Shown: positions 1 through 24,728 of the stretch, piece after piece
Layout of the letters: each line of letters opens with the position of its first letter
Numbering within the stretch: position 1 is the stretch's first letter
DNA from: a virus
Taxonomy: Duplodnaviria > Heunggongvirae > Uroviricota > Caudoviricetes
Length of the DNA: 33,977 nucleotides
Direction: 5' to 3' (one strand)
Virus record (IMG/VR): IMGVR_UViG_2563366805_000007
The notes under the pieces: generated by a model
The model's database searches: none
Told to the model about the DNA's origin: nothing
The model's input: the letters and a program-made list of their open reading frames with translations, nothing else
Translations under genes and position numbers: made by a program

Positions 1-948
1 ATGATTATGCAAAAAATATTACGTATCGACAGTAACGATAATCTCATTGTCGCGTTGAAAGACCTGCACGCTGGAGAATCGTTCTCGTGGGATGACGACA
101 ACATAACGTTAGTAACTGATGTTAAGGCTAAACATAAGTTTGCGACGCAAGATATTCCTCTGGATGGCATTGTTTCGATGTACGGTACGCCAGTTGGCAA
201 GGCCACGCGTCCCATCGTTAAGGGAGAAGCGATTACCGTTGATAATATTCGCCACTATGCAGCTCCTGTCACACTGGAGGATGTTGAACCCTACCACTGG
301 CAGGCACCGGATGTCTCTGAATGGAGCACCCGCACTTTTAAAGGTTATGTCCGTGACGATGGCAGAGTGGGTACTGCCAGTTACTGGTTAGTCTTTCCAT
401 TGGTATTTTGCGAGAACCGTAATGTCAGTACGTTAACCAATGCTTTGAATGATGCTTTGGGTTATACCAATAACTCACTGAAAAAGTTTGCTCTTAATCT
501 GACGTCCGGTAGCGATGAACTGATCGAAACCGCGAGAATGTTTCCGCATATTGAAGGTGTTCGCTGTATTACGGTCACCAGTGGTTGTGGTGGTGCAACT
601 TCAGACTGTGAAACTATGTGCGATGTATTAGCTGCTTATGCTGACCATCCGAATGTAATCGGTATGACGGTATTCAGTTTAGGATGTGAAAAAGCGCAGC
701 AGAAAATGTTTAAGGATGCGCTGGCGAGACGTAATCCTGAATTTGATAAACCTGCGCTCTACTTTCTCCAACAGGAGTGGGACAGCGAAGAGCGGATGAT
801 GCAGACCGCTTTACAGCAGACTTTCGAGGCAATGAAAGCGGTGAAGCCGACAGAAAGAGTAGAGGTCCCTCTTTCCTGTCTCAAAGTGGGTGCCGCGCGC
901 CAATCAAAACGCGACACATTGACAACTAACATTGGATCGCGTTTGTGA
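1..948 (+). CDS. UxaA/GarD-family (altronate/galactarate) dehydratase, N-terminal fragment disrupted by prophage insertion; host-derived part is 1..890, the frame then reads into the phage end to a stop at 946-948
   Basis: Translation shows the N-terminal SAF-like region and the GLGCE motif of the UxaA/GarD family. The protein ends ...PLSCLKVG, exactly where the C-terminal fragment at 33261 resumes with MKCGGSDG (compare E. coli UxaA ...LKFGLECGGSDG, from memory). Confidence 0.7.
   Translation: MIMQKILRIDSNDNLIVALKDLHAGESFSWDDDNITLVTDVKAKHKFATQDIPLDGIVSMYGTPVGKATRPIVKGEAITVDNIRHYAAPVTLEDVEPYHWQAPDVSEWSTRTFKGYVRDDGRVGTASYWLVFPLVFCENRNVSTLTNALNDALGYTNNSLKKFALNLTSGSDELIETARMFPHIEGVRCITVTSGCGGATSDCETMCDVLAAYADHPNVIGMTVFSLGCEKAQQKMFKDALARRNPEFDKPALYFLQQEWDSEERMMQTALQQTFEAMKAVKPTERVEVPLSCLKVGAARQSKRDTLTTNIGSRL
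886..890. repeat. Left copy of the 5-bp target-site duplication GTGGG
   Basis: GTGGG occurs immediately outside both prophage termini (886-890 and 33261-33265); removing the prophage plus one copy restores an in-frame dehydratase ORF. It fits the Mu target consensus N-Y-(G/C)-R-N. Confidence 0.6.
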
Positions 949-955
949 TCATGAT

Positions 956-1510
956 TTATATGTCAGATGCTGGGAATCGTTTGTACAGAGTTGAGATTCC
1001 GACGTCATAAATTAGGGCCACCCTCTGACGAGTTTCGCCAGCCGCTAACAATCTTCCAGCCTGCGCCCACTGTTCAGGTGTTAACTTAGGTCTTCGACCT
1101 CCCACGCGCCCCTCAGCTCGCGCAGCAGCCAGACCTGCACGTGTACGTTCAACAATCAGTTCACGTTCCATCTCGGCCAATGCCCCCATAACATGAAAAA
1201 AGAAGCGCCCCATTGGCGATGAAGTATCTATGCTGTCAGTCAGACTTTTAAAGTTGATACCTCGCTCGCGTAGTTCTTCCACCAGTCCAACCAGATGACG
1301 CATGCTGCGTCCGAGGCGATCAAGCTTCCAGACCACGAGGGTGTCACCTTCAGATAGCGTTCTGAGTACCCGTTTTAGTCCGGGTCTGTCTGAGGTTCTG
1401 CCGCTTATCTTGTCTTCAAAAATCAGCTCACATCCTGCACATTCCAGCGCATTACGCTGTAATGCCGTGTTCTGGTCATTTGTTGATACACGTACATAGC
1501 CAATAAGCAT
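956..1510 (-). CDS. gin: Gin-type serine DNA invertase (G-segment invertase)
   Basis: Translation MLIGYVRVSTNDQN...GDTLVVWKLDRLGRSM...MGRFFFHVMGALAEMERELI is near-identical in motif content to Mu Gin / Hin / Cin resolvase-invertases. The ORF-track start at 1546 is probably an upstream extension; the conserved start is MLIGYVRV at 1510. Confidence 0.9.
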   Translation of the reverse strand: MLIGYVRVSTNDQNTALQRNALECAGCELIFEDKISGRTSDRPGLKRVLRTLSEGDTLVVWKLDRLGRSMRHLVGLVEELRERGINFKSLTDSIDTSSPMGRFFFHVMGALAEMERELIVERTRAGLAAARAEGRVGGRRPKLTPEQWAQAGRLLAAGETRQRVALIYDVGISTLYKRFPASDI

Positions 1511-1527
1511 GGTTAAACTCACTTTAA

Positions 1528-1938
1528 ATGGCGGGAATAATGCCATTTGAGCGACTAACGATCATTATCGAAAACGTTGGTTTGGGAGAAGCAGCTAAAA
1601 GGAATGTAGGTACAGGGGCGAATCAGATACCTGATATGAGCCTGTTCGCGTCAAGTAATACCGCAACGGCTGCTGCGCAAAAATTTCCGTCTGGATTAAT
1701 TTTACAGTGCGGTCAGTTGAATGGCTCCCCGAATGTATCTTCAATATACGGGATGAGGTTCCCGATGACATTCTCAAGAGTCCTTGCTGTCACAGTTACA
1801 TTGAACGTTACTGGCGCGTCAGGGCAGCCGACTGTATCGGCGACAAATGTCCATAACACTGGATTTGATATTACAGTATCGCCCGGTTCAGGATACGGTT
1901 CATCTGCTGATGCGTATTACATTGCAATGGGATATTAA
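1528..1938 (+). CDS. Alternative tail-fibre variable segment (S-prime variable part), promoterless until G inversion fuses it to the constant 5' part of S
   Basis: The ORF runs through the gix site at 1565-1590 and encodes ...VGLGEAAKR..., sharing the GLGE crossover codons with S (...NLGLGEGS...). After inversion between the gix centres the frame is continuous with S codons upstream of 3448. Confidence 0.6.
1565..1590. repeat. gix-like recombination site (right boundary of the invertible G segment in phage orientation)
   Basis: TTATCGAAAACGTTGGTTTGGGAGAA is a 12-2-12 imperfect palindrome resembling Gin/Hin/Cin crossover sites. It is an inverted repeat of 3434-3459, conserved over AAAC-S-TTGGTTT-R-GGAGAAG. 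Confidence 0.75.
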
Positions 1939-1942
1939 CAAA

Positions 1943-2362
1943 ATGTCATATTTTTATTCTGCATCGACAAACGGATTTTATTCGACTGAATTTCACGGCA
2001 CCAATATTCCTGATGATGCAGTGGAAATCTCGGAATCAGAGTGGAAAACACTGATTAATGCACAGAGTGTAACAAAAATGATTACCTGTGGTGAGAACGG
2101 TCATCCTGTCATTGTTGACCGTCCTTCTCCAACACCAGAACAATTAGCCTTAATAAATGATGAAAAGAAATCTGCACTGATAGCAGAGGCAACGAATGTA
2201 ATAGCTCCGCTTCAGGATGCGGTTGATTTAGGTATGGCAACAAATGATGAAACGAAACTGTTACTGGCATGGAAAAAATATCGAGTGCTATTGATGCGTA
2301 TTAATACTTCAACAGCACTCGATATTGAATGGCCTACGCCTCCGGCAGTTCAGGCCAGATGA
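1943..2362 (+). CDS. Tail-fibre assembly protein, alternative copy (U-prime) inside the G segment
   Basis: ATG at 1943 immediately follows the S-prime stop; small acidic protein in the position of Mu U-prime; convergent with U on the opposite strand. Confidence 0.65.
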
Positions 2363-2936
2363 CATCCGGCGCTGTGCTGGTATCTGTTGCCATCACCGCG
2401 TCAATGTAATCCAGCACAGCGTTAAGGCGGGTTGTTTCTGCCTGCGTCAGCTTCCGCCCGGCCTGTAATTTCAGTTGAATCAGACTAATGGAAGCCATTG
2501 CAGCATCAATCAGTGACTGACGCTGTGCTTCTGCCGCTTCGACTGCTGCGCTATGCTGTGCCTCAGTATCTGTTACCCATTTCTCACCATCCCATTTATC
2601 GTATGGCGTTAACGGGGCGATAGTGGTCGTGTTTTCAGGATAATCACCCGGAGCTGTGATTTCTTTTGATTCTCCCGTTTCGGTGTTATAGACAACTTCA
2701 CCGCGATGGTCTGGCACATATTCCCATGAGTTAAAATCTGCTGAGCGGCAGATAGCATAACCAGCTTTATGTGTAACTGGCGCATCTAAACAAGAACATG
2801 CCGGGATACCGACGCCAACAGCAAGATATTCAGTTGATGTAGAAATATATTCCCGCGTTTCACCATCATAATTATAAACGGTAATATCTCCCGTCTTTGT
2901 GGCAATGAGTTCGTTATTTAATACGGCTTTATTCAT
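2334..2936 (-). CDS. Tail-fibre assembly protein (U-like)
   Basis: Immediately downstream of S with an ATGA stop/start overlap; size and position as Mu U tail-fibre assembly chaperone. Confidence 0.7.
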
Positions 2937-3754
2937 CAGGCAGCCCTCACGATATAATTAAAGGCAATGTTACGAGGACGGTTTTCGTTTGCAGTTGGAA
3001 CAATTCTTGAAGCATCAAGGCCAATCACTTTTGGGTAAACAGCGCCATCTGCTCTTTCAGTCACCATACTTCTGATTAAGGAGAAATAACTATTGTTCGT
3101 TGAGGGATTCAAAGGCACCACTGCCCCCTTAAACGAGTCTACTGATTCCCATATTGAATAATTTTCGGTGTTTACAGTCTTGAACTCACCATAGATATTA
3201 CGTATGGCATCGCCCTGAGCTGATAATATTGCCCTCCCCGTATCCATACCACGTCCGTCATCCCAGCCACGAATAAACTCACCACGTAAATCAGGCAATT
3301 TATTTGTCGGGTAAGCCTTTGCCAGTTCTGGGTATTCTTCAGCAGAAAAAGCTGCTCCGTTGCATTTTAGCCAGCCTGTTGGCGGAGTGGCTGAGGGCCA
3401 CGGAACAGGTACGCCAACAGGCAATGCTGAGCCTTCTCCTAAACCAAGGTTTGTGAGAGCCGCCGCGATTGCTGCCGCACCATCTGCTTTAATGTCGCCA
3501 AATGGATTGGAACGACTCAGAAACAGTTTTTTGAGAGCGACCAGAATCTGCGTGTTGTCCATTTTGTCAGGATCAATCCCAGCGGCCTTGAGAATATTGA
3601 GCAGCTCGCTTTGAATGACATTAAACCAGTCCGGTCCGGGATACGTCGGAGGAACGCCATTACCTCCTTCAGTAAAGAAAAGCTCGGTCTCACTGGTGAC
3701 AGGAGACGGTTGTGGCATAACCGGAACACCGGTTGAATTATCTACGTGAAACAT
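2936..3754 (-). CDS. Tail-fibre protein S (constant N-terminus outside the G segment, variable C-terminus with phage tail-collar domain inside it)
   Basis: N-terminus MFHVDNSTGVPVMPQ... resembles Mu S (from memory); the C-terminal part has a tail-collar-like motif LPDLRGEFIRGWDDGRGMDTGR; the gene spans the gix site at 3434-3459. Confidence 0.8.
   Translation of the reverse strand: MFHVDNSTGVPVMPQPSPVTSETELFFTEGGNGVPPTYPGPDWFNVIQSELLNILKAAGIDPDKMDNTQILVALKKLFLSRSNPFGDIKADGAAAIAAALTNLGLGEGSALPVGVPVPWPSATPPTGWLKCNGAAFSAEEYPELAKAYPTNKLPDLRGEFIRGWDDGRGMDTGRAILSAQGDAIRNIYGEFKTVNTENYSIWESVDSFKGAVVPLNPSTNNSYFSLIRSMVTERADGAVYPKVIGLDASRIVPTANENRPRNIAFNYIVRAA
3434..3459. repeat. gix-like recombination site inside S (left boundary of the invertible G segment in phage orientation)
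   Basis: TTCTCCTAAACCAAGGTTTGTGAGAG; its reverse complement aligns with 1565-1590. The centre dinucleotide falls in the Leu codon preceding GLGE. Confidence 0.75.
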
Positions 3755-4344
3755 CAGTTATCTCCTGAAGAATAAAAATATTCGTATGCTGTGCCGCCGA
3801 GACGGTATTTCGTCAGCACACACTCCAGTTCTCTTGCACGTTCGCTCAGAAGCGGTGTCATGACGTTATCGATACAGGTAAAACGTCCGCCGTTGATACC
3901 GATCACATCAATCTGTAACGTCCAGCGATAACGAGCTGGATAAAGGGGATACACGCAGCTACGCATGCAGTGGTGAGGCAGAATGACAGTAACCCGGATA
4001 GTAAATCCAAGCGCGGCAGCCACAGCTTCAATCTGCCACGGGGAAAGGCCACCTTTGCGGTGATACTTCTCCACGACAGCACGACGTCGGTCTTCTACAG
4101 TACCGCTTAACTGCCCACACTCCGGCAGTTCAAGGTATTCCTCCCATTCTTCCAGCAGCATAAATGTTGTTTCTGGCCGCATCTCCGGTAGCAGGTTTTC
4201 TGCATCAAATTCCGTCTGACTTAAACGCCTGGCTAACGCCCGTAAAAAACGGTTTAAATCACCATCCTCATCGCGTGACCACGCTTTGCCACGTGGCATG
4301 ACCTGCCATAAAGCGCCCAGCCATTCATCTACACTGTGGGCCAT
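3754..4344 (-). CDS. Tail/baseplate protein (Mu gp48-like)
   Basis: Position between the baseplate J-like gene and S; translationally coupled to both neighbours. Confidence 0.6.
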   Translation of the reverse strand: MAHSVDEWLGALWQVMPRGKAWSRDEDGDLNRFLRALARRLSQTEFDAENLLPEMRPETTFMLLEEWEEYLELPECGQLSGTVEDRRRAVVEKYHRKGGLSPWQIEAVAAALGFTIRVTVILPHHCMRSCVYPLYPARYRWTLQIDVIGINGGRFTCIDNVMTPLLSERARELECVLTKYRLGGTAYEYFYSSGDN

Positions 4345-5405
4345 GTCAGCACTCCGATAGTGATAAGTTCATTCTGAGCACAGGGAATGTCAGCGGTCAG
4401 ATTCAGCGTGTAATCCGTCACGCCAGATGCGGTGCCGATAGCAGTGCGAATCGCTGAAATGGGCAGCGTTTGTCCTGGTTGCAGCGTCTTCTGAAGCGTC
4501 AACAGGCGGGACTGGACAGCTTTACGCGTGGCCGGTGTATCCGGTGTTATGCCAATAATCATATTGACGGGACGGAGCACCAGTTCCACGGGCCAGACTT
4601 CTATTCCTCCAGGTTTACCAACCCATACGCCAGTCGCCGGGTCGGTATGACGGAAAAGGTAATCTTCCATATTTTTCCGGTCCTGATATCCGGGGGTAAT
4701 CACTGAACGATCGTCATAAACCCATGCCAGTCCGATTGTGCAGGGACCATGCCAGGCATCAAATGCCCACGCCCGACTGACACCAGCCATTTCTCGCGCC
4801 CAGATGACATAGTCATGCACAGCCCCACCAACGGGGGGATTGCGTTTACGGAATAAAAGCCGGTCAAGCAATTCAGAAACTGGCTCAATATCCGAACCAC
4901 CGATGATGCCTCCCGTACCCGTTAAACCAATACTTTCCACGCCGGGAACGGGGGACAGCAGGGTCAGGCTTTCACCTTCCGGAAGGTTTCCTGACGCGCC
5001 GGCATCGCTGGCCTGAATGGTTACAGTCATGACCCCATCTACAGGAACGCCGGAAGTCGTCACGGCATAAACAATACCGGTAGCGGTTTGCATCTCCATA
5101 TCTTCCGGCAGCGGTGTATTCCCTTTAAATACCGCCGGCCCCGTAGCAAACGTGGCCTGTTTTCTGACGACGCCTTCGCTGGCCGCAGTCTCAATGATGG
5201 TTTCATCATCAGATTTAACAGACGGAATAATCTGGTCTTTAATCCAGCTCTGATGGTCGTATAAATCACGAACCTGATTGCTGAATGAGGTATTTAGAGC
5301 TTTCTCAACGCCTACTGGCGGAAGTTTTTGCAGCCCCAGTTCAAAGGCAATATCTTTTTCGCCGTCAGTAATAAGCTTGCGCAGCGCGGGAACGTTATAA
5401 GGCAT
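4329..5405 (-). CDS. Baseplate J-like protein (Mu gp47-like)
   Basis: 358-aa protein in the baseplate module, of size and character typical of the Baseplate_J family. Confidence 0.75.
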   Translation of the reverse strand: MPYNVPALRKLITDGEKDIAFELGLQKLPPVGVEKALNTSFSNQVRDLYDHQSWIKDQIIPSVKSDDETIIETAASEGVVRKQATFATGPAVFKGNTPLPEDMEMQTATGIVYAVTTSGVPVDGVMTVTIQASDAGASGNLPEGESLTLLSPVPGVESIGLTGTGGIIGGSDIEPVSELLDRLLFRKRNPPVGGAVHDYVIWAREMAGVSRAWAFDAWHGPCTIGLAWVYDDRSVITPGYQDRKNMEDYLFRHTDPATGVWVGKPGGIEVWPVELVLRPVNMIIGITPDTPATRKAVQSRLLTLQKTLQPGQTLPISAIRTAIGTASGVTDYTLNLTADIPCAQNELITIGVLTWPTV

Positions 5406-5847
5406 TAGCAGTGGACTCCCAGCGTTTACTTATTTCAATCCGGAGCGTCGTTTTATCCGGGCGGGTTAGAATGACAATAAAATTAATTCGGTCATTGCCG
5501 CTTATAGTGGCTGTGACTGCTGCATTACGCGCATAACCAGAACGTAAAAGCGGTTGCATAGAAAGCAGTGCATAATCTTCCACCCGCATTCTGACGGATT
5601 CCGTCAGCTTCTCGCGATCCAGCAACCAGAGTTTCGATCCCCACGGATAATCACTAAATGTGTCGCCGGGCCAGCCTCTCGGGTCCGATGAGTTATCAGG
5701 AATAATGTCATCAGTATCAGCACGGACGTCGGTGAAAAGACAAATCAGAACCAAAGTGACCAGTCCTTCATCACGCGATAAACCATCATGGTTAATTGTC
5801 AGTTCACCTCTGGAGAGTTGATTATTCCAGCTGATACCAATAGTCAT
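5395..5847 (-). CDS. Baseplate protein (Mu gp46-like)
   Basis: 150-aa ORF overlapping both neighbours in the baseplate operon. Confidence 0.65.
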   Translation of the reverse strand: MTIGISWNNQLSRGELTINHDGLSRDEGLVTLVLICLFTDVRADTDDIIPDNSSDPRGWPGDTFSDYPWGSKLWLLDREKLTESVRMRVEDYALLSMQPLLRSGYARNAAVTATISGNDRINFIVILTRPDKTTLRIEISKRWESTANAL

Positions 5848-6386
5848 TTCATCTCCGATGTTTTTTTGCCATCCCCGTCCATATGGAAATGCTCAAGAAC
5901 AGATTTACCGGCGACCTGAATATCATTTGAAAATACAGATGGGCCGTTAACTTTTAATAATTTTGTATTTATCGCAAACAATTCGCCGGCATCGTAATTA
6001 ACCGATTTCCCTTTAACGTCGATAAGACCACCTTTTTTCAGGGTGATATAAGACTGACCATCGCCGTGATATAACCTGACCTCTCCATCCTCCAGACCTT
6101 TTGGACGACAGCGCTTGTCTTCAACAGCGATTGCCACCAGACCTTCCCGGCGTCCCCCCACTGCCAGAATGAGTGCTTCTGAACCGACTGGCGGCACAGA
6201 CGTCAGGCCGTAGTTCTGGAAACGTTCAACATCATCATTGGTGGAATCCGCCAGAGACTGGATCTGGAGGTTCTGACGCCCGAGACTGTCTGTAACGATA
6301 CGAACAACGGCCCTGTCAACGAGCAATCGCAGCCGGCGTCCAATACCTTCAAGTGTGCGACCGATATTTGCCGGATTCAGTCCCAT
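5844..6386 (-). CDS. Baseplate assembly protein V / spike-like (Mu gp45-like)
   Basis: 180-aa protein directly downstream of the hub gene P. Confidence 0.65.
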   Translation of the reverse strand: MGLNPANIGRTLEGIGRRLRLLVDRAVVRIVTDSLGRQNLQIQSLADSTNDDVERFQNYGLTSVPPVGSEALILAVGGRREGLVAIAVEDKRCRPKGLEDGEVRLYHGDGQSYITLKKGGLIDVKGKSVNYDAGELFAINTKLLKVNGPSVFSNDIQVAGKSVLEHFHMDGDGKKTSEMK

Positions 6387-7471
6387 GTTTCCTCCGTTTT
6401 TGCCTTTGATCTCTTGCCTTTCTTGCCTGCTTTTTTCGCACTGGTTTCAGGCATATCCATCGACTCAGGGGGAACCAGCGTCAGAACGCAGAGACGTCCG
6501 TTATCACCTTCAGTAAACGTGACGGTTTTAATCAGCCATGAGTCCTTCAGGTTCTGTACCGGGTCATCAATATCAACGCGCCTGTTTTTCTGCCATAACG
6601 GGCCTTCATCGCCATTCTCTCGCCATCCTGCCAGTGTAATTTCGGTGCTGTTGGCTTCGCCCATCATCCGCGCTTTGTACCATTCACCGCGTGTACTTGC
6701 GCCTCCGACGGTCAGGCTGTCTTCATTGACCAGAATTTTCGGGCGGTAACGGTTGATGTCACCATCATCAACGATGGTCTGACGTCCTCCAATCACTTTG
6801 ACTGGCTGATCGTCCCACGTGCTCCCACCCGCACTGGAGGTGCCTTTCACGATGTACTGGCTGTTTCTCTCACGCCAGCTGAACCGGCCGCGGGCTGCAA
6901 GAATATTGGTCCCGAAAATCAGAGGAACGCCGGCACGCTTTGTTGATGCACGGGTGATGATCAGATTACCCAGACCATCAGCAGTCAGCAGAACGCCGCG
7001 TTGTTTAGCCAGGCGGTCAAGAAGATCGAAGGCGGTCTCTCCCTGTTCAAGCACCACGCTACCGAAGGTTTCACCAGTGTCAGTTTCACTGATAACACTG
7101 ATGCCATAGGGTTTGCAGATTTCCACTGCCAGTTGCTCCAGTCGAACACCTTTCCACTGGCCGGATTTATGCACCACTGAGCTGTCAACGAGATCGCCGG
7201 TTTTATCCCGCCCCATAACGCGAATACTCATGTTTTCTGCGTCATAGCTGGGAATGAAATCATCAATATACCCCGTCAGAACCGTATCTTTTCCCAGCCT
7301 GACGATGCAGGGCATGCCCTGCTTAATCACGCGTGGTGATGCTTCTGACCATTGTGTGGTGACAGTGAGATCAAATTCGCCGGCAACAGCCTCCAGTGAG
7401 GAAGTGATGGACATCTCTGTCCATCCGTCCCACTGCTGGCCGTCAACCTCAAGCACAACCATTTCCATCAA
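6377..7471 (-). CDS. Baseplate hub / tail protein P (gpD-like)
   Basis: 364 aa, follows N as in Mu; lysine-rich C-terminus. Confidence 0.75.
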   Translation of the reverse strand: MMEMVVLEVDGQQWDGWTEMSITSSLEAVAGEFDLTVTTQWSEASPRVIKQGMPCIVRLGKDTVLTGYIDDFIPSYDAENMSIRVMGRDKTGDLVDSSVVHKSGQWKGVRLEQLAVEICKPYGISVISETDTGETFGSVVLEQGETAFDLLDRLAKQRGVLLTADGLGNLIITRASTKRAGVPLIFGTNILAARGRFSWRERNSQYIVKGTSSAGGSTWDDQPVKVIGGRQTIVDDGDINRYRPKILVNEDSLTVGGASTRGEWYKARMMGEANSTEITLAGWRENGDEGPLWQKNRRVDIDDPVQNLKDSWLIKTVTFTEGDNGRLCVLTLVPPESMDMPETSAKKAGKKGKRSKAKTEETWD

Positions 7472-8799
7472 TCTGTTACCTCGACAGGTTTACCCGGAAG
7501 AACGAACGCCGGGTCTTTCAATCGGTTCCTTGACGCGATGGCGTCACGGTTCTCGGTATTACCGGTTTCACGCCATGCAATCAGAGATACCGGGGACGTT
7601 GTGGTCAGAATGACCGTTCGTGTCTGTGGTAGCTGAGCGCTTCTGACCCGCACGTCATTGACGACGGCAAAGCGCAGCTCGCGCAGGGCATGCCACAAAT
7701 TCCGCTGACCGTTTTCTACGGCATACACAGCTTGTTCATTCAGTTGCTCAGCCAGCGTGTCACCCGCACTTATGGCTTCCTCACTACTTCTGAACTCGGT
7801 GCTGGCAACGGTCTCTGCCTGTCCAATTAGGCTGGCAACGACAATCAGCTGACGAAAATGAGTGATGTTGGCCTGCATGGCATCGGTCAGTTCAGGGACA
7901 ACGTCCGGAAGGCTGCTGGCAAAACCATACTTTCCGTCAGTCACTGAACCTGGTGTGACTGACATGTATTTGGGCAACTGGTGAAGTGCAGCGGCTGTCG
8001 CCCGGTCACTTGTATTTGTTGGCGAAACCGGCGACGACCACGGCGAAGATGAAGAACCGGAAAACTGATCTCCCTGCCACCGGTTGCGGATCTGATCATA
8101 AACCCGCATTGACCAAAGAGGTTCGGTCACGGTGTCGCGTACACCGCTGACAAGGTTCAGAACATCATTGATAAATCCGGCTGGTTTCGCGACGGCCAGC
8201 TCAATCAACCCACGAAAACGCCCTAAACGGTCAGTCCATTCAGTAATCGCGGAGGGCAGCGTCAGCACACCCACTACCAGATTTTCCATGTCGTCCATCC
8301 ACGTATCGGCCATCTCACCAAGACCATCAAGCAGGGCAAAGACATCGCCATTCGCCAGCGCAGCTTTGACCTTATCCGCTGCGCTGAGTACCGTCAGGCT
8401 GGTATTTTCTGCCGGCGCAGGAAACAGGCGCTCGCCCGCCTCAGATACCTCAAAAGAGATGTAGGCAATGCCGCCTTCCTCAGTGCTCAGACGGTGAGTC
8501 ACCTTACCAATCTGAACCTTCTGAATGCCGAACCACGGATGGATAAGTTCACCGGGTCCAGGTGTGTTCAGAGCCCGGAGAAGTGCCTCCAGTTGGCTCT
8601 GGTAGTTCTTTCCAATCAGCTTGCCGTTGATTTGCTGTTGGGTCAGAACGGCACCGTTATCCTCGGTCCAGCCCACTTCTTTTTTGGGGTAGGCGCGGGG
8701 AATTGCCCGACGGCCGCTGGTGCCTTCGTTATCGACCAGATAAAACGAGACGCCCCGGAACGAAGCATCGCGCAGGTCTTCCCATCGGGTAGCAGCCAT
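7468..8799 (-). CDS. DNA circularisation protein N-like tail protein
   Basis: 443-aa protein directly downstream of the tape measure, with stop/start overlap, as Mu N. Confidence 0.75.
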   Translation of the reverse strand: MAATRWEDLRDASFRGVSFYLVDNEGTSGRRAIPRAYPKKEVGWTEDNGAVLTQQQINGKLIGKNYQSQLEALLRALNTPGPGELIHPWFGIQKVQIGKVTHRLSTEEGGIAYISFEVSEAGERLFPAPAENTSLTVLSAADKVKAALANGDVFALLDGLGEMADTWMDDMENLVVGVLTLPSAITEWTDRLGRFRGLIELAVAKPAGFINDVLNLVSGVRDTVTEPLWSMRVYDQIRNRWQGDQFSGSSSSPWSSPVSPTNTSDRATAAALHQLPKYMSVTPGSVTDGKYGFASSLPDVVPELTDAMQANITHFRQLIVVASLIGQAETVASTEFRSSEEAISAGDTLAEQLNEQAVYAVENGQRNLWHALRELRFAVVNDVRVRSAQLPQTRTVILTTTSPVSLIAWRETGNTENRDAIASRNRLKDPAFVLPGKPVEVTD

Positions 8800-10718
8800 C
8801 AGCCTTGCTCCACGCTGGACACGCCAGCAGATGCACTAAGTTTGATATCCGGCTGGTTCATGGTGACGCTTTTAACACGGCCACCGCCACCCTCAAGGAT
8901 CACGCGGATTTCACCCTGCATTTTCTGTAGGGTTGTGGGTAATGCAGGTGGCTGAACAGGCTTATCAAACGCGTTTTTGTTTTCAATTGCGGCGTTGGTG
9001 CCACGCAGAAAATCAACGATGACACCAAACAAAGAATGATCACTCGTTTCAGGGCGCGGTCTGTCTGCCGGGGGATTTTCAGCCGCAGGAATGAACGGCG
9101 TCGCCGGGGTCAGTGATGCCCACGGGCGCGGGTCAATAACCGGTTTCTCATTTGCTTTGCGTTTGGCACGATCCTTTGCCCACTGAACCATGCCAGCTTT
9201 GTCATCACTGCTCAGTGATGGTTCTTCATAAAGGTATGGAATAGTTGACGCCAGCATGGTCAGGCCGACCATTTCCTGTGGGCTGCCAGGACGTCTGGGA
9301 CTATTAGGTTTACGGGGATTTTTTCCATCAGGTCCATCGGGGATTAAATCACCCGGCCCCCCCATCCCACCTTTGCCCATGTTCACGACATAAACGGGCA
9401 TAACACCGGAGCCAAAAACATCGGAGACGCCTTTAGGGATGCCTTTTCCGCCTTTTTCTGGCTGGAGAAACTCCCATGCACCTTTACCAATTTTAAATGC
9501 TTTACGTGCCGCAATGACTCCAGCGGTCGCAATGGCTATTTTCTTGCCGACTTCCAGCCAGTTCTGAACCGTCTTTTGATCAACTGAATTGATAGCATCA
9601 GCCAGGTCCTGTACCGGGCCGGCAAGATTGCTGTTAGAAAACTTCTTCCAGGTAACATTCAGGCTGGTCAGTGCCGAAGTAAAATCTTTCGCCGCATATT
9701 CAGCATCTTTCATGATGCCTGTGCCGTCCCCGACAACTGACTGGTATCGCTTGAGGTTTTCTGCTCCTTTACCAGAGGTGGCACTGCTGATAAGTAAAAT
9801 ACTGTCCTGGTTAAAACCGGCTTCCAGGAGTCTTTTATTCTGTTTCTCAGAACCTTTACTCCCTGATTTTTTAGCGATTTCCTCCAGGAGTGTTGGAAGT
9901 GATCGCATCTTCCCATCTTTGTCATAAACGTTGACACCATTCTTTCGAAGGGTGCTAACAACCTTTGGCAACTGCAGATCACGAATAAGGTTTTCAGTCG
10001 CCGTGGCTGCTGTATCACGGTTGCCTGTGGCATCAATGGCTGATTCCAGTACAACGCCTACGTCTTTGACTCCCTTAACGCCACTCCCGCCAGCAGCGGA
10101 GTACATAGAGAAGGCTCTGACGCCTTTTTCTGCAATGTCTTTCAGCTCAAATGCGCCTTCTTTTCCCAGAAGGTTTAACGTGTCCATAGCTGCAAGCGTC
10201 TGCTTTTCAGTCTGAAGACCAAATTTGGGGAACTGAGAAAACAGTCCGCCAATCGAATCCCCCTGAGAGCCTGATGCAGCGATAGAGGCGGCTATCATGC
10301 CCTTATTCTGAATACCGAAATCCAGATCACCGGTCGTTTTGTTGACATTCTCCAGTGCGGCCAACACCTCCGAGTCATCCACCCGGAATTTGATGGCGGT
10401 ATCCTGAATACCATCAAAGATATTGCGCATCTCATCACGAGTTTTACCGGCGGCAATACCCAGCCCGGTTAATTGTCGATCTGTTTTAGCAAATTCTCTC
10501 AGCGCTGCGCCGCTGGCAAGGCCGGCAATCATCGTTGTATAGCGATTACTGAGCATGTCCAGACCACGTCCGGCAGATTCAGACGCGGCCTTAACAACAG
10601 ACATTGCTTTCTGGTTACGGCTGGCAAACTCGCTCATGTTAGCGCCGTACTGGCGGGCTTTAGCCGTCAGGTTCCCGGCAAGGTTAATCAGAATTTCAGT
10701 GCTTAGGCGGTTTGTCAT
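8799..10718 (-). CDS. Tail tape-measure protein
   Basis: 639-aa ORF, Ala/Gly-rich and largely low-complexity, located after the tail-chaperone pair as in all contractile and siphovirus tail modules. Confidence 0.8.
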   Translation of the reverse strand: MTNRLSTEILINLAGNLTAKARQYGANMSEFASRNQKAMSVVKAASESAGRGLDMLSNRYTTMIAGLASGAALREFAKTDRQLTGLGIAAGKTRDEMRNIFDGIQDTAIKFRVDDSEVLAALENVNKTTGDLDFGIQNKGMIAASIAASGSQGDSIGGLFSQFPKFGLQTEKQTLAAMDTLNLLGKEGAFELKDIAEKGVRAFSMYSAAGGSGVKGVKDVGVVLESAIDATGNRDTAATATENLIRDLQLPKVVSTLRKNGVNVYDKDGKMRSLPTLLEEIAKKSGSKGSEKQNKRLLEAGFNQDSILLISSATSGKGAENLKRYQSVVGDGTGIMKDAEYAAKDFTSALTSLNVTWKKFSNSNLAGPVQDLADAINSVDQKTVQNWLEVGKKIAIATAGVIAARKAFKIGKGAWEFLQPEKGGKGIPKGVSDVFGSGVMPVYVVNMGKGGMGGPGDLIPDGPDGKNPRKPNSPRRPGSPQEMVGLTMLASTIPYLYEEPSLSSDDKAGMVQWAKDRAKRKANEKPVIDPRPWASLTPATPFIPAAENPPADRPRPETSDHSLFGVIVDFLRGTNAAIENKNAFDKPVQPPALPTTLQKMQGEIRVILEGGGGRVKSVTMNQPDIKLSASAGVSSVEQG

Positions 10719-10881
10719 ATTGCTTCCTCAGTTGCCTGACCTGAATAAGCAACTGCCGTAGGGGCAGTTGCTCAAGCCGGTTAACATCGAAACGCTGAGA
10801 GAGGTTAATCAGCAGTAGATTGAGCGCCGCTGCCATCGGCATCATGTCGCCCCCGTTCGGCAGTCTCCCCCAGCATGTCAT
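10696..10881 (-). CDS. Putative frameshift-extension ORF of the tail assembly chaperone
   Basis: In the +1 frame relative to 10805-11200 and overlapping its 3' end. The frame is open from just upstream of a CGGGGGCGA tract (minus-strand sense, about 10847-10856) to a stop overlapping the tape-measure start. Confidence 0.45.
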   Translation of the reverse strand: MTCWGRLPNGGDMMPMAAALNLLLINLSQRFDVNRLEQLPLRQLLIQVRQLRKQYDKPPKH

Positions 10882-11200
10882 CCATCGCCTGACCCTTTTC
10901 TGTCAGCAACTTCAAATCTTCCGGATGCAGGGCATAAATTTGATTCATGTCCAGCGGGCCGGGGATTTCTCCAATCTTCTTAATCTGCCGGCGCATCATC
11001 TCCAGACCCATCATGACCTCAGAGCAGTAGGCAACCGCCTTGCCGTTATCCCCAATCACAACGCGCTCGGAGGCCAGTTGTGATTCGATAACATCCCGTG
11101 ATGTCAGCTCGCGTAGCGTCACATCCTTGTGAAGCATTTCGTCGGTAGTACCTTTGCCGGTGCGCAGACCGTGTACCAGAGGGAATGTCAGTTCAGCCAT
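10805..11200 (-). CDS. Tail assembly chaperone (Mu gp41 / P2 E-like)
   Basis: Small acidic protein between the tube and tape-measure genes, with an overlapping out-of-frame downstream ORF, the hallmark chaperone arrangement. Confidence 0.65.
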   Translation of the reverse strand: MAELTFPLVHGLRTGKGTTDEMLHKDVTLRELTSRDVIESQLASERVVIGDNGKAVAYCSEVMMGLEMMRRQIKKIGEIPGPLDMNQIYALHPEDLKLLTEKGQAMDDMLGETAERGRHDADGSGAQSTAD

Positions 11201-11203
11201 GTC

Positions 11204-11560
11204 TTACACCTTCACACACTTGACGCCGATGAAGTTAGCCGAAACTGTCCCCGCGTCTTCGTCCAGTTCAGCCGGGTTATCGGTGGCCGCGCCGGTCATC
11301 ATGTAGTTGAGGCCGTTGTCACCGTAGAACATGACGGTCACGTCCTCCCAGTTACTGATTTCAATCACATCAACGTCACGATCCGCTGCAATGGTCAGTT
11401 TGATGGAGGGGGCAGCCATCTTGCGGGAATTCCCCCAGACCTTACCGCCGCCCATGTGTTGCTGGCGGGCATAGCCACCCGGATTCAGGGTGGACTTGCC
11501 TTCAGTTTTGATTTCACGGCCATTAATACGAATCGCCGCCATACCCAGAATATTTGCCAT
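11204..11560 (-). CDS. Tail tube protein (Mu M-like)
   Basis: 118-aa protein immediately downstream of the sheath gene. Confidence 0.75.
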   Translation of the reverse strand: MANILGMAAIRINGREIKTEGKSTLNPGGYARQQHMGGGKVWGNSRKMAAPSIKLTIAADRDVDVIEISNWEDVTVMFYGDNGLNYMMTGAATDNPAELDEDAGTVSANFIGVKCVKV

Positions 11561-11569
11561 GCTGGTTCC

Positions 11570-13051
11570 TTAAAGTTTGAACTGGATGAGACCGGCCAGA
11601 ACGCGCAACTGATTCACCAGATTCGGGTGGCAGATAAAGTTCAGACGGTTTGGGTCTTTGCTGTCGATGGTGACATCAAGCGTGTCTTTATAATCTTCGA
11701 AATCCTCCACCAGACCTGCCGGGATAAGCTCAGTCAGCGCAATATCCAGTAACTCAGCCCGACAGATTTTTGGCGTCATGACTGGCTGACCGGCATCGAG
11801 CAAATCAAGCACGTCATCACCCGCCAGCTTGTGGCGTGGGTAGCGACTGGTGAAACGGTTTTTGATGACATAACGGATACGGCCAAGCGTTGCTGGCGAC
11901 TGCACATCGAGGTATGAAATGTCCGTATCGCCATAGCGGTTTACGCGGTACATGGTGATTTCGCGCTCAATACAGACGTTATCTCCGGCATCAACAAAGT
12001 GCGTGGCGATACCGTCATGCAACAGCAGGTTACGCTCTGGCATATCCCAGCGGATACCGCGAGCGGGGGGCTTGATGCCTGTCAGGATCAGAGTCTGGAG
12101 AGGACGGGCCGGATCTATGGCAAGCTGGTATGCCGCCGTTGCACCGTAGCTGGCGGCCCACATCCATGACGGTTCAGGTGCGATGTTGGTGCCGATACAG
12201 GAAATCAGCCAGTCATTGCGGGTATGTCCGAATGTTCCGCTCTGGGCATGTGTTCCGCGATAAGCAGACCACAACAGCGCCTCCATCATCTTGAGCGGCC
12301 CCCAGCGTTCCAGCAGTTCGTCACGAATGGTGTTCAGGCTCTGGGCATCGAGGTACGGGAAGATGATATCCGTGTACCAGTCATCTCCCAGCGCCGCGAC
12401 AACAGACTGAATATCCGGCGTCCCCGTACCACCCGAAAATGCGGTCAGTGTTGCACTGATGCCGGCAGGTGTTTTTTCTCCGGCGTAATAGTTCAGGCGC
12501 ACATCACTGTCATTTCCCGTGACGCCTTTCCACTTCACGGTCAGCACTACCGTTGCAGCAGCTTCAGCTTTTGCTGTGGCAGTAACCTGAGTGGCAGGCT
12601 TTGCGGTAATTGCAGCGATGATATTGCCGGCAATGGTTGCCGCTTCATCACCGATGCTGACCCCGACCTGGACAGATACGCCATTGATCATCAGTGCCAG
12701 CGTACCAGCCTGAGTGGCGGTGCCGAGCATCGTGACTGTGGCACTCGCCGCGGCACCCTGGGCAATATCTTCCAGTCCCATCGCATACATCTCGGTGTAA
12801 CTGTTGGCCATACGGACCATCTTTGCCATTTCACCCAGCATGGAGCCACGGCCATAGAGTTCATCAGCCATGCTGTCGCCAGTAATACGGTTCAGCGTCA
12901 ACGGTAAAGCAGTCGCGCTGGCGAGCTGCTGACCCACAACCAGAATTTTTCGGGACTGTGCCGGCGCGGCACTCATCGCCATAGAGTTATCGATATCGAT
13001 CCAGACCAGCGGGACACGAATATCATCAGGAATATTACCGATGGACATCAT
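11570..13051 (-). CDS. Contractile tail sheath protein (Mu L-like)
   Basis: 493-aa protein followed by tube and chaperone genes; size and context of a myovirus sheath. Confidence 0.85.
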   Translation of the reverse strand: MMSIGNIPDDIRVPLVWIDIDNSMAMSAAPAQSRKILVVGQQLASATALPLTLNRITGDSMADELYGRGSMLGEMAKMVRMANSYTEMYAMGLEDIAQGAAASATVTMLGTATQAGTLALMINGVSVQVGVSIGDEAATIAGNIIAAITAKPATQVTATAKAEAAATVVLTVKWKGVTGNDSDVRLNYYAGEKTPAGISATLTAFSGGTGTPDIQSVVAALGDDWYTDIIFPYLDAQSLNTIRDELLERWGPLKMMEALLWSAYRGTHAQSGTFGHTRNDWLISCIGTNIAPEPSWMWAASYGATAAYQLAIDPARPLQTLILTGIKPPARGIRWDMPERNLLLHDGIATHFVDAGDNVCIEREITMYRVNRYGDTDISYLDVQSPATLGRIRYVIKNRFTSRYPRHKLAGDDVLDLLDAGQPVMTPKICRAELLDIALTELIPAGLVEDFEDYKDTLDVTIDSKDPNRLNFICHPNLVNQLRVLAGLIQFKL

Positions 13052-13236
13052 GCCTCCTTATCGGTTTTAGGTGTGCGGGACTTCGGTGGCTCAGTGATAT
13101 TCACATCGCCTTCTTTTTCACGGCGCAGCCAGTACGCATTGACCGGCAGCGTCTCGCCATCAGCGGCAAGGTGACTGCCATCAGCCTTACGAACGAGCAG
13201 GCCCGCCCGTGATGGCTTAATCATTTTCTTTGTCAT
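13048..13236 (-). CDS. Small conserved phage protein (Mu gp38-like)
   Basis: 62-aa ORF coupled to the sheath gene start (ATGA overlap). Confidence 0.5.
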   Translation of the reverse strand: MTKKMIKPSRAGLLVRKADGSHLAADGETLPVNAYWLRREKEGDVNITEPPKSRTPKTDKEA

Positions 13237-13840
13237 CAGTCTGTCCTTCTCTTACGTTTATGATTTGCGGCTCATCGCTTACAGGCTGTCCGTTCACCAC
13301 AATGGTTGCCCCCAGTCGCAGGAATTCCGGCAGCGTGGACAGGTCTATCTCATCATCAAGACGGAATTCCTGTTCCCATGTAACGGCCCACATGGTGATC
13401 CCGAGATTGTCCAGGCCACCCGACCAGAGGTTTTCAGCGGCGATGTTCTCAGCCATACGCTCAGCCTTCATGCCCGCAGCCGCTTCACGACAACTGATAC
13501 GACGGGCAAGGCGTCCGGCAATAACCTCACAGCGGGCATCGCGCGGGTATCCCCAGAAATCAGCCATCATGATGTAGGCCGCCCAGGTCACAAGTCCGGT
13601 CATGCCGCGACGGTTCTGGATATTCCTGACCCGTAAGGCCGCAATACGGATACTGCCGCCGCGCCCGGACATATAGCTTTTGACCTGATCCGGGGTGTTA
13701 AACTGACCGATGTGACGCTCCACCTTTTCAACCCGGTCAGGTTGCTTTTCACCCTCCAGTTCAGCTTTCAGCCAGTTAACAATATTCTCGGCGGCACTGA
13801 CCGTACTGCCCAGGGTGACGAACGCCGGACGTTCATTCAT
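13217..13840 (-). CDS. Head-tail joining / tail completion protein (Mu gp37-like)
   Basis: 207-aa ORF between the virion-morphogenesis gene and the sheath module. Confidence 0.6.
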   Translation of the reverse strand: MNERPAFVTLGSTVSAAENIVNWLKAELEGEKQPDRVEKVERHIGQFNTPDQVKSYMSGRGGSIRIAALRVRNIQNRRGMTGLVTWAAYIMMADFWGYPRDARCEVIAGRLARRISCREAAAGMKAERMAENIAAENLWSGGLDNLGITMWAVTWEQEFRLDDEIDLSTLPEFLRLGATIVVNGQPVSDEPQIINVREGQTDDKEND

Positions 13841-14382
13841 TGCAGAACCTCATTCCAGAAATCCCCGATGACGTGCAGCAGTTCCTGACTGTTCCCGGAG
13901 GACAGGCCGAGGAACTCACGCTGCGGGATGTTCAACATACGTTTATGCGCCCCCACGGTTTGCCATACCCCGTGTTTAAGCGCCCGTCCAAATGCCTGTG
14001 AGATGAGTCGCTTATGGGCTGACACAGACACCGAGCCGGAAAACCCCTCGTTGTGCGTCCGGCCATAATCAAGCGGCGTACCCACACGAACGACAGAGCC
14101 GCTGACCACATACTGGATACTGTCGAGCAGATCGCCGTTGCCCTGTAACAGGCTCTGGTTGCTGTGTCTGGTTTTCGCGTAGCTGTCAGACCAGTCCTGC
14201 CATTTCTCGCCGGCAGGACTGGATTTTTCGCTGGAGATGCGCCGGCGGGTCTGTGACTCCACCACAGCGCCAATGCTCTCCAGTAGCTCCTGTTGCAGCG
14301 ACTGGTCAGCCAGTCGCTCAATCGCACGGCGAATGTCCTGAAACTTCTGGTCTCCTCTGACCTCGACAGTAATTCCCATCAC
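13837..14382 (-). CDS. Phage virion morphogenesis protein (Mu G-family homologue)
   Basis: 181-aa ORF coupled to both neighbours; assigned by size and character to the Mu G virion-morphogenesis family. Unlike Mu it lies downstream of the capsid gene rather than between F and I. Confidence 0.65.
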   Translation of the reverse strand: MMGITVEVRGDQKFQDIRRAIERLADQSLQQELLESIGAVVESQTRRRISSEKSSPAGEKWQDWSDSYAKTRHSNQSLLQGNGDLLDSIQYVVSGSVVRVGTPLDYGRTHNEGFSGSVSVSAHKRLISQAFGRALKHGVWQTVGAHKRMLNIPQREFLGLSSGNSQELLHVIGDFWNEVLQ

Positions 14383-14819
14383 AGCACCCCTTTCAGGTTG
14401 TTACGGGTGAACAGACGACGGTTTTCACTGACGATGATCAGCTTTCCGGTGTCGGTCTCAGGGACCGGGGTGTCAGACGGCACACCGAGGTCACGGGTGC
14501 CGTTGGCGATTTCACGCAGGGTGCGGAGGGCTTCGTCGTAACGCTTCTGGATTTCATCGGTGATCTGATGGTCCCGTTCAGACAGCCAGTAGAACGCGAT
14601 GGAAACCGCCGCCCGGCGCAACGGACTCGGCAGGCTCGGAAGGTTCAGCGGCAACTGATAACGCTTTGCCAGAAAGGAATTAATTTCTGCATCAGTGTCA
14701 TCAATCGCACGCTGGATCTTTTCTTCGTCGAGCTGCTGCGTCTCTTTGTTGATTGCCATGTTCCAGACGCGGTCACCATCGGTTGCCAGCAGGTCCTCAC
14801 GCGTTACGTAGATGCCCAT
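14379..14819 (-). CDS. Head-tail connector protein (Mu gp36-like)
   Basis: 146-aa ORF in the head-completion block. Confidence 0.6.
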   Translation of the reverse strand: MGIYVTREDLLATDGDRVWNMAINKETQQLDEEKIQRAIDDTDAEINSFLAKRYQLPLNLPSLPSPLRRAAVSIAFYWLSERDHQITDEIQKRYDEALRTLREIANGTRDLGVPSDTPVPETDTGKLIIVSENRRLFTRNNLKGVL

Positions 14820-15412: not shown

Positions 15413-15495
15413 TTTTTAAACCTCATTCAGGTTGGGTTTAAAGGAGGGTTAACCCCTCCTTAATCCGGCATTACGTGATTTTTTACGTAATGACG

Positions 15496-16389: not shown

Positions 16390-16392
16390 GAA

Positions 16393-22997: not shown

Positions 22998-23003
22998 AGC
23001 CTC

Positions 23004-24727: not shown

Positions 24728-24728
24728 A

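Follow-up and report, generated by a model that had tools for sequence, protein, structure and literature searches.

One end of a Mu-type prophage carried on a viral sequence record of 33,977 nucleotides (IMGVR_UViG_2563366805_000007; hereafter the window) encodes two alternative tail-fiber C-termini beside an invertase gene, and the question raised by this locus is whether it is a working switch. Invertase-driven tail-fiber switching has been known since the studies of Mu, P1 and e14, and loci of this kind have been catalogued by the thousands. We conclude that the locus is very probably a functional switch of tail-fiber specificity, driven by a serine invertase of the Gin/Pin family, i.e. 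of the Fis/enhancer-dependent type. It is an ordinary switch of a well-known type and there is little new in principle; it does offer a clear case of a complete Mu-type phage, without a close deposited relative, bearing the type of cassette seen in e14, P2-like and lambdoid phages.

The host prophage and the architecture of the locus

The element hosting the locus is a complete prophage of E. coli (Table 1), with Pfam matches to MuA, MuB, a Mu-type repressor, and the Mu portal, sheath and baseplate. It is flanked by the two copies of a 5-bp target duplication, GTGGG (886-890; 33261-33265). Excision of 891-33265 restores a 533-aa UxaA-family ORF, the empty insertion site is found in 511 complete E. 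coli genomes, and the prophage sits at differing loci in different strains. A megablast search of deposited phages with the 25-kb backbone recovered just one distant Klebsiella prophage; hence, no named phage can be assigned.

Table 1. Features of the tail-fiber locus and its host prophage, in window coordinates
Feature	Coordinates	Strand	Basis or detail
Complete Mu-type transposable prophage of E. coli, TG...CA ends	891..33260	-	Pfam hits and target duplication
gin/pin-type serine DNA invertase, 184 aa	956..1510	-	Pfam domains and Gin structure match
Putative Fis-dependent recombinational enhancer in 5' coding part of gin	1427..1489	-	Synonymous constraint
Orphan ORF beside gin, 136 aa; leader of 17 amino acids outside the segment, fused in frame to Sv'	1528..1938	+	ORF list
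Recombination site L (gin-proximal, pix/gix-like)	1565..1590	+	Central TT at 1577-1578
Invertible segment, 1,869 bp between site centers	1578..3446	.	In-frame in-silico flip; natural flipped copies
Sv', alternative C-terminus (gp53-like/H-type-lectin-like), predicted to be silent in present orientation	1578..1938	+	Gp53-like_C, E 1.2e-13
U', tail-fiber assembly protein paired with Sv'	1943..2362	+	Caudo_TAP, E 4.7e-31
Strong hairpin and UUUUUU, starting 8 nt past the U stop	2271..2326	-	Folding
U, tail-fiber assembly protein paired with Sv, predicted to be expressed in present orientation	2334..2936	-	Caudo_TAP, E 1.9e-32
Sv, variable C-terminal part of S (collar type), now joined to Sc	2936..3446	-	Pfam Collar, E 1.9e-15
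Recombination site R (inside S)	3434..3459	+	Central AA at 3446-3447
Sc, constant N-terminal part of tail-fiber protein S, ~103 aa	3447..3754	-	Mu S N-terminus match

The constant part of the fiber, Sc, whose start overlaps the stop of a gp48-like gene, matches the N-terminus of the Mu tail fiber protein S (PDB 5yvq and 8ju3; E 2e-18). Sv matches PDB 9cuy, a 'short tail fiber' (E 1.4e-26), as well as the collar regions of T4 gp37/gp12. No relative of solved structure was found for Sv' by sequence, and AlphaFold2 prediction of the natural S' fusion, based on an alignment of 24 sequences, gave no usable model (mean pLDDT 43). The first-pass annotation had considered the two variable domains unrelated to each other; their assignment to distinct families (Collar vs Gp53-like_C) and the lack of any similarity between them in BLASTP agree with this.

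An in-silico flip between the site centers joins Sc to Sv' in frame in a 222-aa product, S', and full-length E. coli proteins of 222 aa occur naturally with 95-99% identity to this fusion over 100% of the length. These natural proteins, along with the presence of every structural element named in it, support the earlier proposal that inversion exchanges both the C-terminus of S and U for U'. The residue counts offered with it need correction: rather than 167 residues of S being replaced by 120, the exchanged stretches beyond the shared G-L-G-E are 165 and 115 residues (169 and 119 from the crossover codon). The hairpin downstream of U (18-bp stem; dG -35.8 kcal/mol; z = -8.45), which was missed by a consensus scan and found by folding, probably acts as an intrinsic terminator for S-U transcription in the present orientation.

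The recombination sites

Site L has the sequence TTATCGAAAACG TT GGTTTGGGAGAA and site R TTCTCCTAAACC AA GGTTTGTGAGAG, the reverse complement of the latter being CTCTCACAAACC TT GGTTTAGGAGAA. Both are imperfect palindromes (self-complementarity of 16/26 and 18/26), which as inverted repeats of each other agree at 20 of their 26 positions; their polarity is inverted, and the centers represent the identical dinucleotide when one is inverted. To search the window we used a consensus, TTMTCNNAAACSWWSGTTTNNGAKAA, derived from the Mu gix and e14 pix sites only, allowing up to 3 mismatches. It yielded two matches in the 34 kb, namely site L (no mismatches) and site R (1 mismatch), and none in 100 shuffles of the window. 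A third site, as in Min-type multi-inversion systems, was sought in the window by the same consensus and not found, leaving two sites only. A looser regular expression was discarded on account of dozens of spurious matches. The pair also escaped a generic repeat search seeded at 9 nt, since the longest exact run common to both sites is 7 nt. Thus, the two mutually inverted 26-bp imperfect palindromes of the first-pass annotation are confirmed as the sole consensus matches, and reading the encoded frames verifies that both encode G-L-G-E across the crossover, in each case toward the interior of the segment.

The incomplete identity of the sites brings up the possibility that the locus is a frozen relic, wherein the layout was inherited from an invertible ancestor and the sites or Gin of the source strain have lost the capacity for inversion. 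Beyond the 20/26 agreement, the inner half of site R (GGTTTA) has an A that is absent from its relatives, the window presents one orientation only, and the authors of the SfMu study suspected that a single-base asymmetry beside the center blocks inversion in that phage (PMC4406740). However, the private A falls at an unconstrained position of the consensus, where Mu gix also has an A, and the G/C asymmetry beside the site center occurs likewise in e14, whose segment inverts at ~30% in culture (PMC12529663).

The Gin invertase and a putative enhancer

The neighboring gene, previously noted as encoding Gin, is indeed an intact invertase gene, whose product contains the Resolvase (E 5.6e-51) and HTH_7 (E 6.2e-12) domains and shows identities of 87% to e14 PinE and 80% to Mu Gin. 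Residues 1-182 match the Gin crystal structures 3uj3 (80% identity) and 4m6f. The catalytic Ser9 is present within the sequence YVRVSTNDQ and, together with the conserved QAGRL motif, points to a protein free of disabling changes, which again argues against a relic. This Q-A-G-R-L aligns with the Q-A-G-R-L of Gin and would map onto the corresponding positions of Hin. In Hin, the residues Gln151, Arg154 and Leu155 of DBD helix 1 are the Fis/enhancer-contacting, invertase-specific residues (PMC3798978).

Among 71 unique gin homologues, codons 7-31 show the lowest synonymous-codon entropy (0.51 vs 0.76), a value as low as which was reached in none of 5,000 amino-acid-matched permutations. The gene further shows two invariant clusters with an ATTAC..TAATG spacer and with centers 48 bp apart, which is reportedly the reference spacing between the Fis sites of such enhancers; the proximal cluster lies ~96 bp from the center of site L. 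The corresponding 15-bp cores are GTATCAACAAATGAC (1475-1489) and TGTGCAGGATGTGAG (1427-1441), and the same stretch is also conserved in Mu gin and e14 pinE. The combination of synonymous constraint and cluster spacing fits a Fis-type enhancer embedded in the coding sequence (cf. PMC3798978).

Natural copies in both orientations

The window itself shows one orientation, and the evidence on orientation is a comparison among genomes. After flipping of the segment, the window is matched at 99.95% identity over 8,157 bp by an independent contig from E. coli (L010), which aligns to the unflipped window in two blocks, one colinear (3433-9754) and one inverted (1572-3426). The strain ECONIH4 and a viral contig (L012) carry the same phage with the cassette inverted, ECONIH4 matching 891-1591 at 100% and 3433-8706 at 99.98%. 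In these flipped relatives colinear homology stops at 1591 and resumes at 3433, with the inverted homology beginning at 1572; the breakpoints are thus inside the sites. The same is seen with a cassette ~92% identical to that of the window in two further genomes, EC12 and EC15, which are identical over 8,142 bp save for its exact inversion, with breakpoints in the shared half-site beginning at the central TT. As IS66 interrupts the cassette of ECONIH4 and the L010 sequence stops 8 bp away from site L, no single relative combines both flipped junctions intact with an identical cassette.

The gin flank of the window, including site L, is 100% identical to those of ECONIH4 and L012, both of which have the opposite orientation. 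Taken with the features of the sites and of Gin discussed above, this makes a frozen relic very unlikely. A different explanation for the two orientations might be RecA-dependent recombination at short inverted repeats or errors of assembly, and the breaking of draft contigs such as L010 near the sites does show that assemblers struggle at this locus. We nevertheless regard it as exceedingly improbable: both states are found in the closed, complete genomes of ECONIH4, EC12 and EC15; at just ~15-20 bp, the shared repeat is short for homologous recombination to be efficient; the breakpoints are serine-invertase consensus sites adjoining an invertase gene; and inversion of the homologous e14 segment has been shown experimentally to need Pin recombinases (PMC12529663).

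For annotation, the prophage is best described as the carrier of a P-type invertible cassette whose alternative products are S and S'. The cassette orientation in any assembly is arbitrary, and the cassette can break short-read contigs.

Mechanistic interpretation

In the switch that we favor, Gin dimers would bind the two inverted 26-bp sites with their identical TT centers, and a Fis-bound enhancer within the 5' portion of gin, at ~96 bp from site L, would assemble the invertasome. The central dinucleotide would then be cut with a stagger, and a 180-degree rotation of the subunits would result in inversion of the 1,869-bp segment. In the present orientation, the late tail operon is predicted to comprise Sc-Sv (collar type)-U, probably ending at the terminator after U, and following inversion it would comprise Sc-Sv' (gp53-like)-U'. 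With two such operon states, the virions from a lysogen population would therefore be expected to carry either of two unrelated receptor-binding tips, presumably with different host ranges.

Relationship to the e14 P segment and the Mu G segment

In terms of site sequence, invertase identity and cargo, the system resembles the e14 P segment (pix/PinE) more closely than the Mu G segment. The earlier description of the sites as gix-like is apt insofar as they match the joint consensus of Mu gix and e14 pix, but the nearer type is that of e14 pix/PinE. Sites L and R match the pin-side and stfP-side sites of e14, respectively, at 23/26 positions each; against the e14 core TTGGTTTGGGAGAAGG they match 15/16 and 14/16 bases. 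The two systems share the repeat core TTGGTTTGGGAGAAG(G), the encoding of GLGE at both sites, and a common gene order, namely gp48/YmfQ-like, Sc, the Sv-U/U'-Sv' block and the invertase. The cargo of the collar side is likewise related: U shows 92.5% identity to e14 TfaE, and Sv, at 57% identity to StfE, includes blocks that are 90% identical at the DNA level. Whereas e14 is a defective lambdoid element at icd, the present host is a complete Mu-type prophage in a UxaA-family gene, and in place of an StfP-like Sc it has a Mu-S-like version (47% identity to StfP over ~87 aa). U' has just 34% identity to TfaP, and the gp53-like Sv' represents another allele, in the same Pfam family but without BLASTP similarity beyond the ORF leader. 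The state of the window, with the collar joined to Sc, is the equivalent of the 'inverted' form of e14. The e14 P segment has been inverted experimentally by PinE, PinQ and PinR (PMC12529663; PMC4272514).

With Mu, the prophage shares the phage type (MuA, MuB, the Mu portal, the gp45-48 baseplate, TG...CA ends and the 5-bp duplication), the right-end position of gin and the cassette, the logic of Sc plus Sv/U or Sv'/U', the inferred position of the enhancer in gin and the 26-bp site consensus; Sc itself is ~40% identical to the N-terminus of Mu S. In contrast, the two gix cores of Mu are identical and belong to longer perfect repeats than those seen here, Mu and SfMu having 34-bp inverted repeats (PMC4406740), and the site center is TC/GA in Mu vs TT/AA here. 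No similarity was found between Sv or Sv' and their Mu counterparts. The com and mom genes are absent, with gin ending 65 bp from the prophage end. As initially noted, the segment of about 1.9 kb is shorter than that of Mu (1,869 bp vs 3,059 bp between annotated boundaries). However, its depiction as compact, if meant as unusual, does not hold, because it matches the median site-to-site distance of 1,866 bp in 37 related viral loci and is similar to the e14 P segment, which is 1,797 bp as published (PMC12529663) and 1,827 bp from center to center.

The orphan ORF and a possible role in defense

The orphan ORF beside gin starts at an ATG of its own, its leader is conserved in e14 stfE (MPF...NVGLGE), and its architecture is that of the e14 'StfE2' (PMC12529663). 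It had been labeled promoterless. A consensus scan of 900-4400 for promoters and terminators gave fewer promoter-like matches than in shuffles, with none upstream of this ORF, and speaks neither for nor against the label, which is not established in light of the ATG, the conserved leader and the reported activity of the equivalent e14 product.

These parallels allow for a reading in which anti-phage defense is the selected role of the locus in the lysogen, with the ORF being made as a StfE2-like receptor mask and host-range switching of the virion being secondary. A 2025 NAR study reported that StfE2, made after inversion of the e14 P segment, lowers T2 adsorption (PMC12529663), though support for the published mechanism comes largely from overexpression and docking. 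Here, the gp53-like domain is a different allele from that of e14, dissimilar to it past the leader, and the scan revealed no promoter-like site upstream of the ORF. Moreover, the prophage looks complete and recently mobile, given its intact MuA/MuB, full structural module, 5-bp duplication and varied loci, so that a function in the virion is to be expected. We hence consider a primarily defensive role unlikely. A combined form, in which the switch would choose the fiber tip and each orientation would at the same time place one of the two receptor-binding domains behind the conserved short leader beside gin (ORF 1528-1938 in the present state) as a free StfE2-like masking protein, appears similarly doubtful. 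Were it true, Gin would toggle host range and superinfection defense jointly, with the lysogen excluding other phages, and any co-resident Pin-family invertase could flip the switch in trans.

Related cassettes and fixed tail fibers in other phages

Returning to the tail-fiber switch, cassettes 92-97% identical to the window segment occur in P2-like E. coli prophages (e.g. of strains EC12/EC15 and ML35), with the homology stopping at the sites; in these the backbone is P2-like and Sc belongs to a P2 H-type fiber. In EC12 and EC15 the invertase gene beside the cassette is truncated, implying that any inversion in them must be catalyzed in trans. Two-site and three-site versions of such cassettes vary within cultures (Goldberg et al. 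2014, PMC4272514).

Each half of the segment also has close cognates among fixed fibers: the Sv'-U' DNA is 94-97% identical to the 'short tail fiber' genes of the Shigella phages SfIV, SfI, SfII and SfV, and U-Sv is ~91% identical to the tfa-stf (side tail fiber) region of HK97. At the protein level, the 216-aa fiber of the SfV type shows 71-77% identity to S' over 88% of its length. The records of these five phages have a single fiber type and lack a match to the invertase part of the query, whereas here two fiber types are placed head to head between recombination sites. The occurrence in a Mu-type phage of a cassette common to e14, P2-like and lambdoid phages supports the exchange of fiber modules at the recombination sites.

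The tail-fibre cassette and its recombination sites

The cassette lies between two 26-bp sites, L beside the invertase gene gin and R within the tail-fibre gene S. Compared as inverted repeats, the two share 20 of 26 positions, and each alone is an imperfect palindrome (16/26 for L, 18/26 for R). A default repeat search of the window did not report the pair because their longest exact run in common is only 7 nt. A degenerate consensus, drawn solely from the reference-record sites of Mu (gix) and e14 (pix) and allowing up to three mismatches, matched the 33,977-bp window only at sites L and R (0 and 1 mismatch); it had no match in 100 shuffles of the window. On the plus strand the central dinucleotide is TT in L and AA in R, which gives the two the opposite polarity that inversion needs. 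Each site also codes for G-L-G-E when translated towards the segment interior. On the gin strand, L carries GATAAT in its outer half, a plausible -10 element for gin.

Features of the invertible cassette and its neighbourhood (window positions)
Feature	Coordinates	Strand	Description
gin	956-1510	minus	Resolvase and HTH_7 domains; site L next
Constraint cluster	1427-1441		TGTGCAGGATGTGAG; low synonymous variability in gin
Constraint cluster	1475-1489		GTATCAACAAATGAC; low synonymous variability in gin
Site L	1565-1590		TTATCGAAAACG TT GGTTTGGGAGAA (plus-strand letters)
Sv' (alternative C-terminus)	1578-1938	plus	Gp53-like_C
U' (assembly protein)	1943-2362	plus	Caudo_TAP
U (assembly protein)	2334-2936	minus	Caudo_TAP
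S	2936-3754	minus	Collar domain, residues 114-161; site R inside
Site R	3434-3459		TTCTCCTAAACC AA GGTTTGTGAGAG (plus-strand letters)
Mu gp48-like and gp47/J-like baseplate genes			Next after S

When 1578-3446 was flipped in silico, the constant N-terminal part of S (Sc) joined Sv' in frame, yielding a 222-aa protein. The C-termini Sv and Sv' show no similarity in BLASTP, and the likeness of U and U' is limited to a C-terminal stretch (34% identical). Thus, the first-pass annotation of an invertible segment with gix-like sites adjoining gin is confirmed as an observation by the consensus search, the domains and the in-frame flip. Its two unequal C-termini stand, with the lengths corrected to 165 residues past the common GLGE in S and 115 in the alternative. 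Its interpretation as a tail-fibre inversion switch is supported.

Both orientations occur in nature

Three independent comparisons show inversion of the segment. First, nine distinct 222-aa E. coli proteins match the in-silico fusion over its full length at 95-99% identity. The contig that encodes one of them (GCA_049820385.1; its end lies 8 bp away from site L) aligns without a break to 8,157 bases of the flipped window at 99.95% identity, but its alignment to the unflipped window falls into two blocks, one colinear (3433-9754, 99.97%) and one inverted (1572-3426, 99.78%). Second, the same phage is found in E. coli ECONIH4, a complete genome, with 100% identity over 891-1591, 99.98% over 3433-8706 and the interior inverted. 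The flipped state is also seen in a metagenomic viral contig whose gin is 100% identical, while strains EC09 and CAVP776 have the orientation of the window. Third, the P2-like prophages of EC15 and EC12 are identical across 8,142 bp apart from an exact inversion of a cassette ~92% identical to that of the window, the permissible breakpoints spanning the common half-site that begins at the central TT.

That the cassette is a frozen relic is unlikely, as gin and the flanks of site L are identical in both orientation states. Neither RecA-mediated recombination nor assembly artefacts explain the orientation differences, since in closed genomes the breakpoints fall exactly at invertase sites. The invertase gene adjoining the EC15/EC12 cassette (3000-3200 of the loci compared) is a truncated pseudogene; hence, inversion there must have been catalysed in trans by another Pin-family invertase of the genome, as PinQ and PinR are reported to do for e14. 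In e14, whose sites are of the same type as L and R, PinE, PinQ and PinR can each catalyse inversion, and cultures contain ~30% inverted molecules (PMC12529663).

The invertible segment of ECONIH4 has an IS66-family element within U' (5774-8151 of the extracted locus), the prophage being otherwise near-identical; in CAVP776, IS66 lies directly outside the prophage end.

Invertase, putative enhancer and transcription

The gin product shares 87% identity with e14 PinE and 80% with Mu Gin. Its residues 1-182 align with crystallised Gin (3uj3, 4m6f), keeping Ser9, and it retains the Q-x-x-R-L motif, which the Hin literature describes as peculiar to Fis-dependent invertases (PMC3798978). As a test for an enhancer, we profiled synonymous-codon entropy along the gene in the 71 unique sequences among 80 gin homologues drawn from viral contigs. 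The lowest-entropy 25-codon stretch is codons 7-31 (0.51 versus 0.76, degeneracy-normalised), and none of 5,000 amino-acid-matched permutations gave one as low. The centres of the two constraint clusters are 48 bp apart, which is the spacing of the Hin enhancer; the proximal centre is ~96 bp from that of site L. ATTAC and TAATG occur in the spacer. In native Hin, hixL is ~100 bp from the proximal Fis site, with ATTTA/TAATG tracts (PMC3798978). The clusters thus match the native Hin arrangement and represent a putative Fis-type enhancer.

We propose that Gin at both sites and Fis at the enhancer within gin would form an invertasome, in which the DNA would be cut at the central TT, the subunits would rotate and the ends would be rejoined, inverting 1,869 bp. 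The late operon would express Sc-Sv-U in the present orientation and Sc-Sv'-U' after inversion. Beside the centre, L and R differ in one asymmetric base, which is G in one of them and C in the other. The same asymmetry exists in e14, both forms of which were seen by whole-genome sequencing and PCR (PMC4272514), and is therefore no obstacle, unlike the asymmetry suspected of blocking inversion in SfMu (PMC4406740).

A minus-strand hairpin at 2271-2326, inside the antisense of U', starts 8 nt past the U stop and comprises an 18-bp stem followed by UUUUUU (dG -35.8 kcal/mol, z = -8.45). This predicted terminator probably ends the Sc-Sv-U transcript and, in the present orientation, would insulate the U'/Sv' antisense and gin from late-operon read-through. 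In the opposite direction there is only a weak terminator-like site past the U' stop (2366-2380, plus), so the level of read-through that reaches gin may depend on orientation.

A P-type cassette in a Mu-like vehicle

This kind of system is well known and the window presents a further member. The label "G segment" is not borne out: the system is closer to the e14 P segment by its sites, U/Sv, gene order and length. Each site matches its e14 pix counterpart at 23/26 positions, and site L has the 16-base e14 repeat TTGGTTTGGGAGAAGG intact but for one base. U is 92.5% identical to TfaE, Sv is StfE-like, and the genes follow the e14 order ymfQ-stfP-tfaP-tfaE-stfE-pinE. Between site centres the e14 segment spans 1,827 bp (its published length is 1,797 bp; PMC12529663), compared with 1,869 bp here. 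Nor is the segment "compact": the median site-to-site distance across 37 related viral loci is 1,866 bp, making this size the clade norm and the 3,059-bp Mu G segment a larger variant.

The Mu-like part is the vehicle. A 32,370-bp Mu-type prophage (891-33260) with TG...CA termini, flanked by a 5-bp duplication of its target (GTGGG, 886-890 and 33261-33265), interrupts a UxaA-family hydrolase gene of E. coli. When 891-33265 is taken out, an unbroken ORF of 533 aa re-forms, and 511 complete E. coli genomes contain the empty site. Copies of this phage occupy three other loci: yiiF in EC09, a DUF932 gene in CAVP776 and the inside of a lambdoid prophage in ECONIH4. It encodes MuA, MuB, a Mu-type repressor and a Mu portal, and Sc matches the Mu S fibre N-terminus (PDB 5yvq and 8ju3, E 2e-18). 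Both com and mom are absent, gin ending 65 bp from the prophage right end. A search of 50,697 deposited phage records gave no close relative for the backbone (4400-29000), the sole match being Klebsiella phage Kp4866-3 (74.6% identity, 27% of the query), and in two junction searches only three complete E. coli genomes matched Sc past site R at high identity. The phage is an uncharacterised Mu-like lineage without com and mom.

The cassette itself has wider affinities. Sv'-U' is 94-97% identical in DNA to fixed short-tail-fibre genes of Shigella phages SfI, SfII, SfIV and SfV, and U-Sv ~91% identical to HK97 tfa-stf; thus, the cassette is a head-to-head pair of fibre modules circulating among unrelated phages. 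Of 5,426 complete E. coli genomes, 2,835 match part of the region. In thousands of genomes of this species segment homology begins and ends at sites L and R, which also bound the homology to P2-like, lambdoid and e14 elements (query coordinates 666-672 and 2548-2563 in one search; 237 or 259-266 in another). These boundaries fit a swapping of fibre modules, at the recombination sites, by prophages that share a host cell.

One of the 80 related viral loci (IMG/VR 2695420595_000022) has two candidate partner sites upstream of its invertase, at 2,148 and 4,093 bp, and may be a three-site, multi-inversion variant as described by Goldberg et al. 2014.

The gin-proximal ORF

An additional role in defence, via the gin-proximal ORF 1528-1938, appears improbable. 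This ORF shares a leader-plus-gp53-like architecture with e14 StfE2, reported in 2025 to block T2 adsorption (PMC12529663), but the prophage in the window is complete, the gp53-like domain is a different allele from that of e14, and we found no promoter-like site upstream of the ORF. Even so, "promoterless", as the first-pass annotation has it, is only a putative description of this ORF. Its leader (1528-1577; ATG CCA TTT ..., MPF...NVGLGE) is common to the phage and e14 (~5620-5656 of the e14 locus compared), and an ATGGCAT motif overlapping it is also kept upstream of Mu gin.
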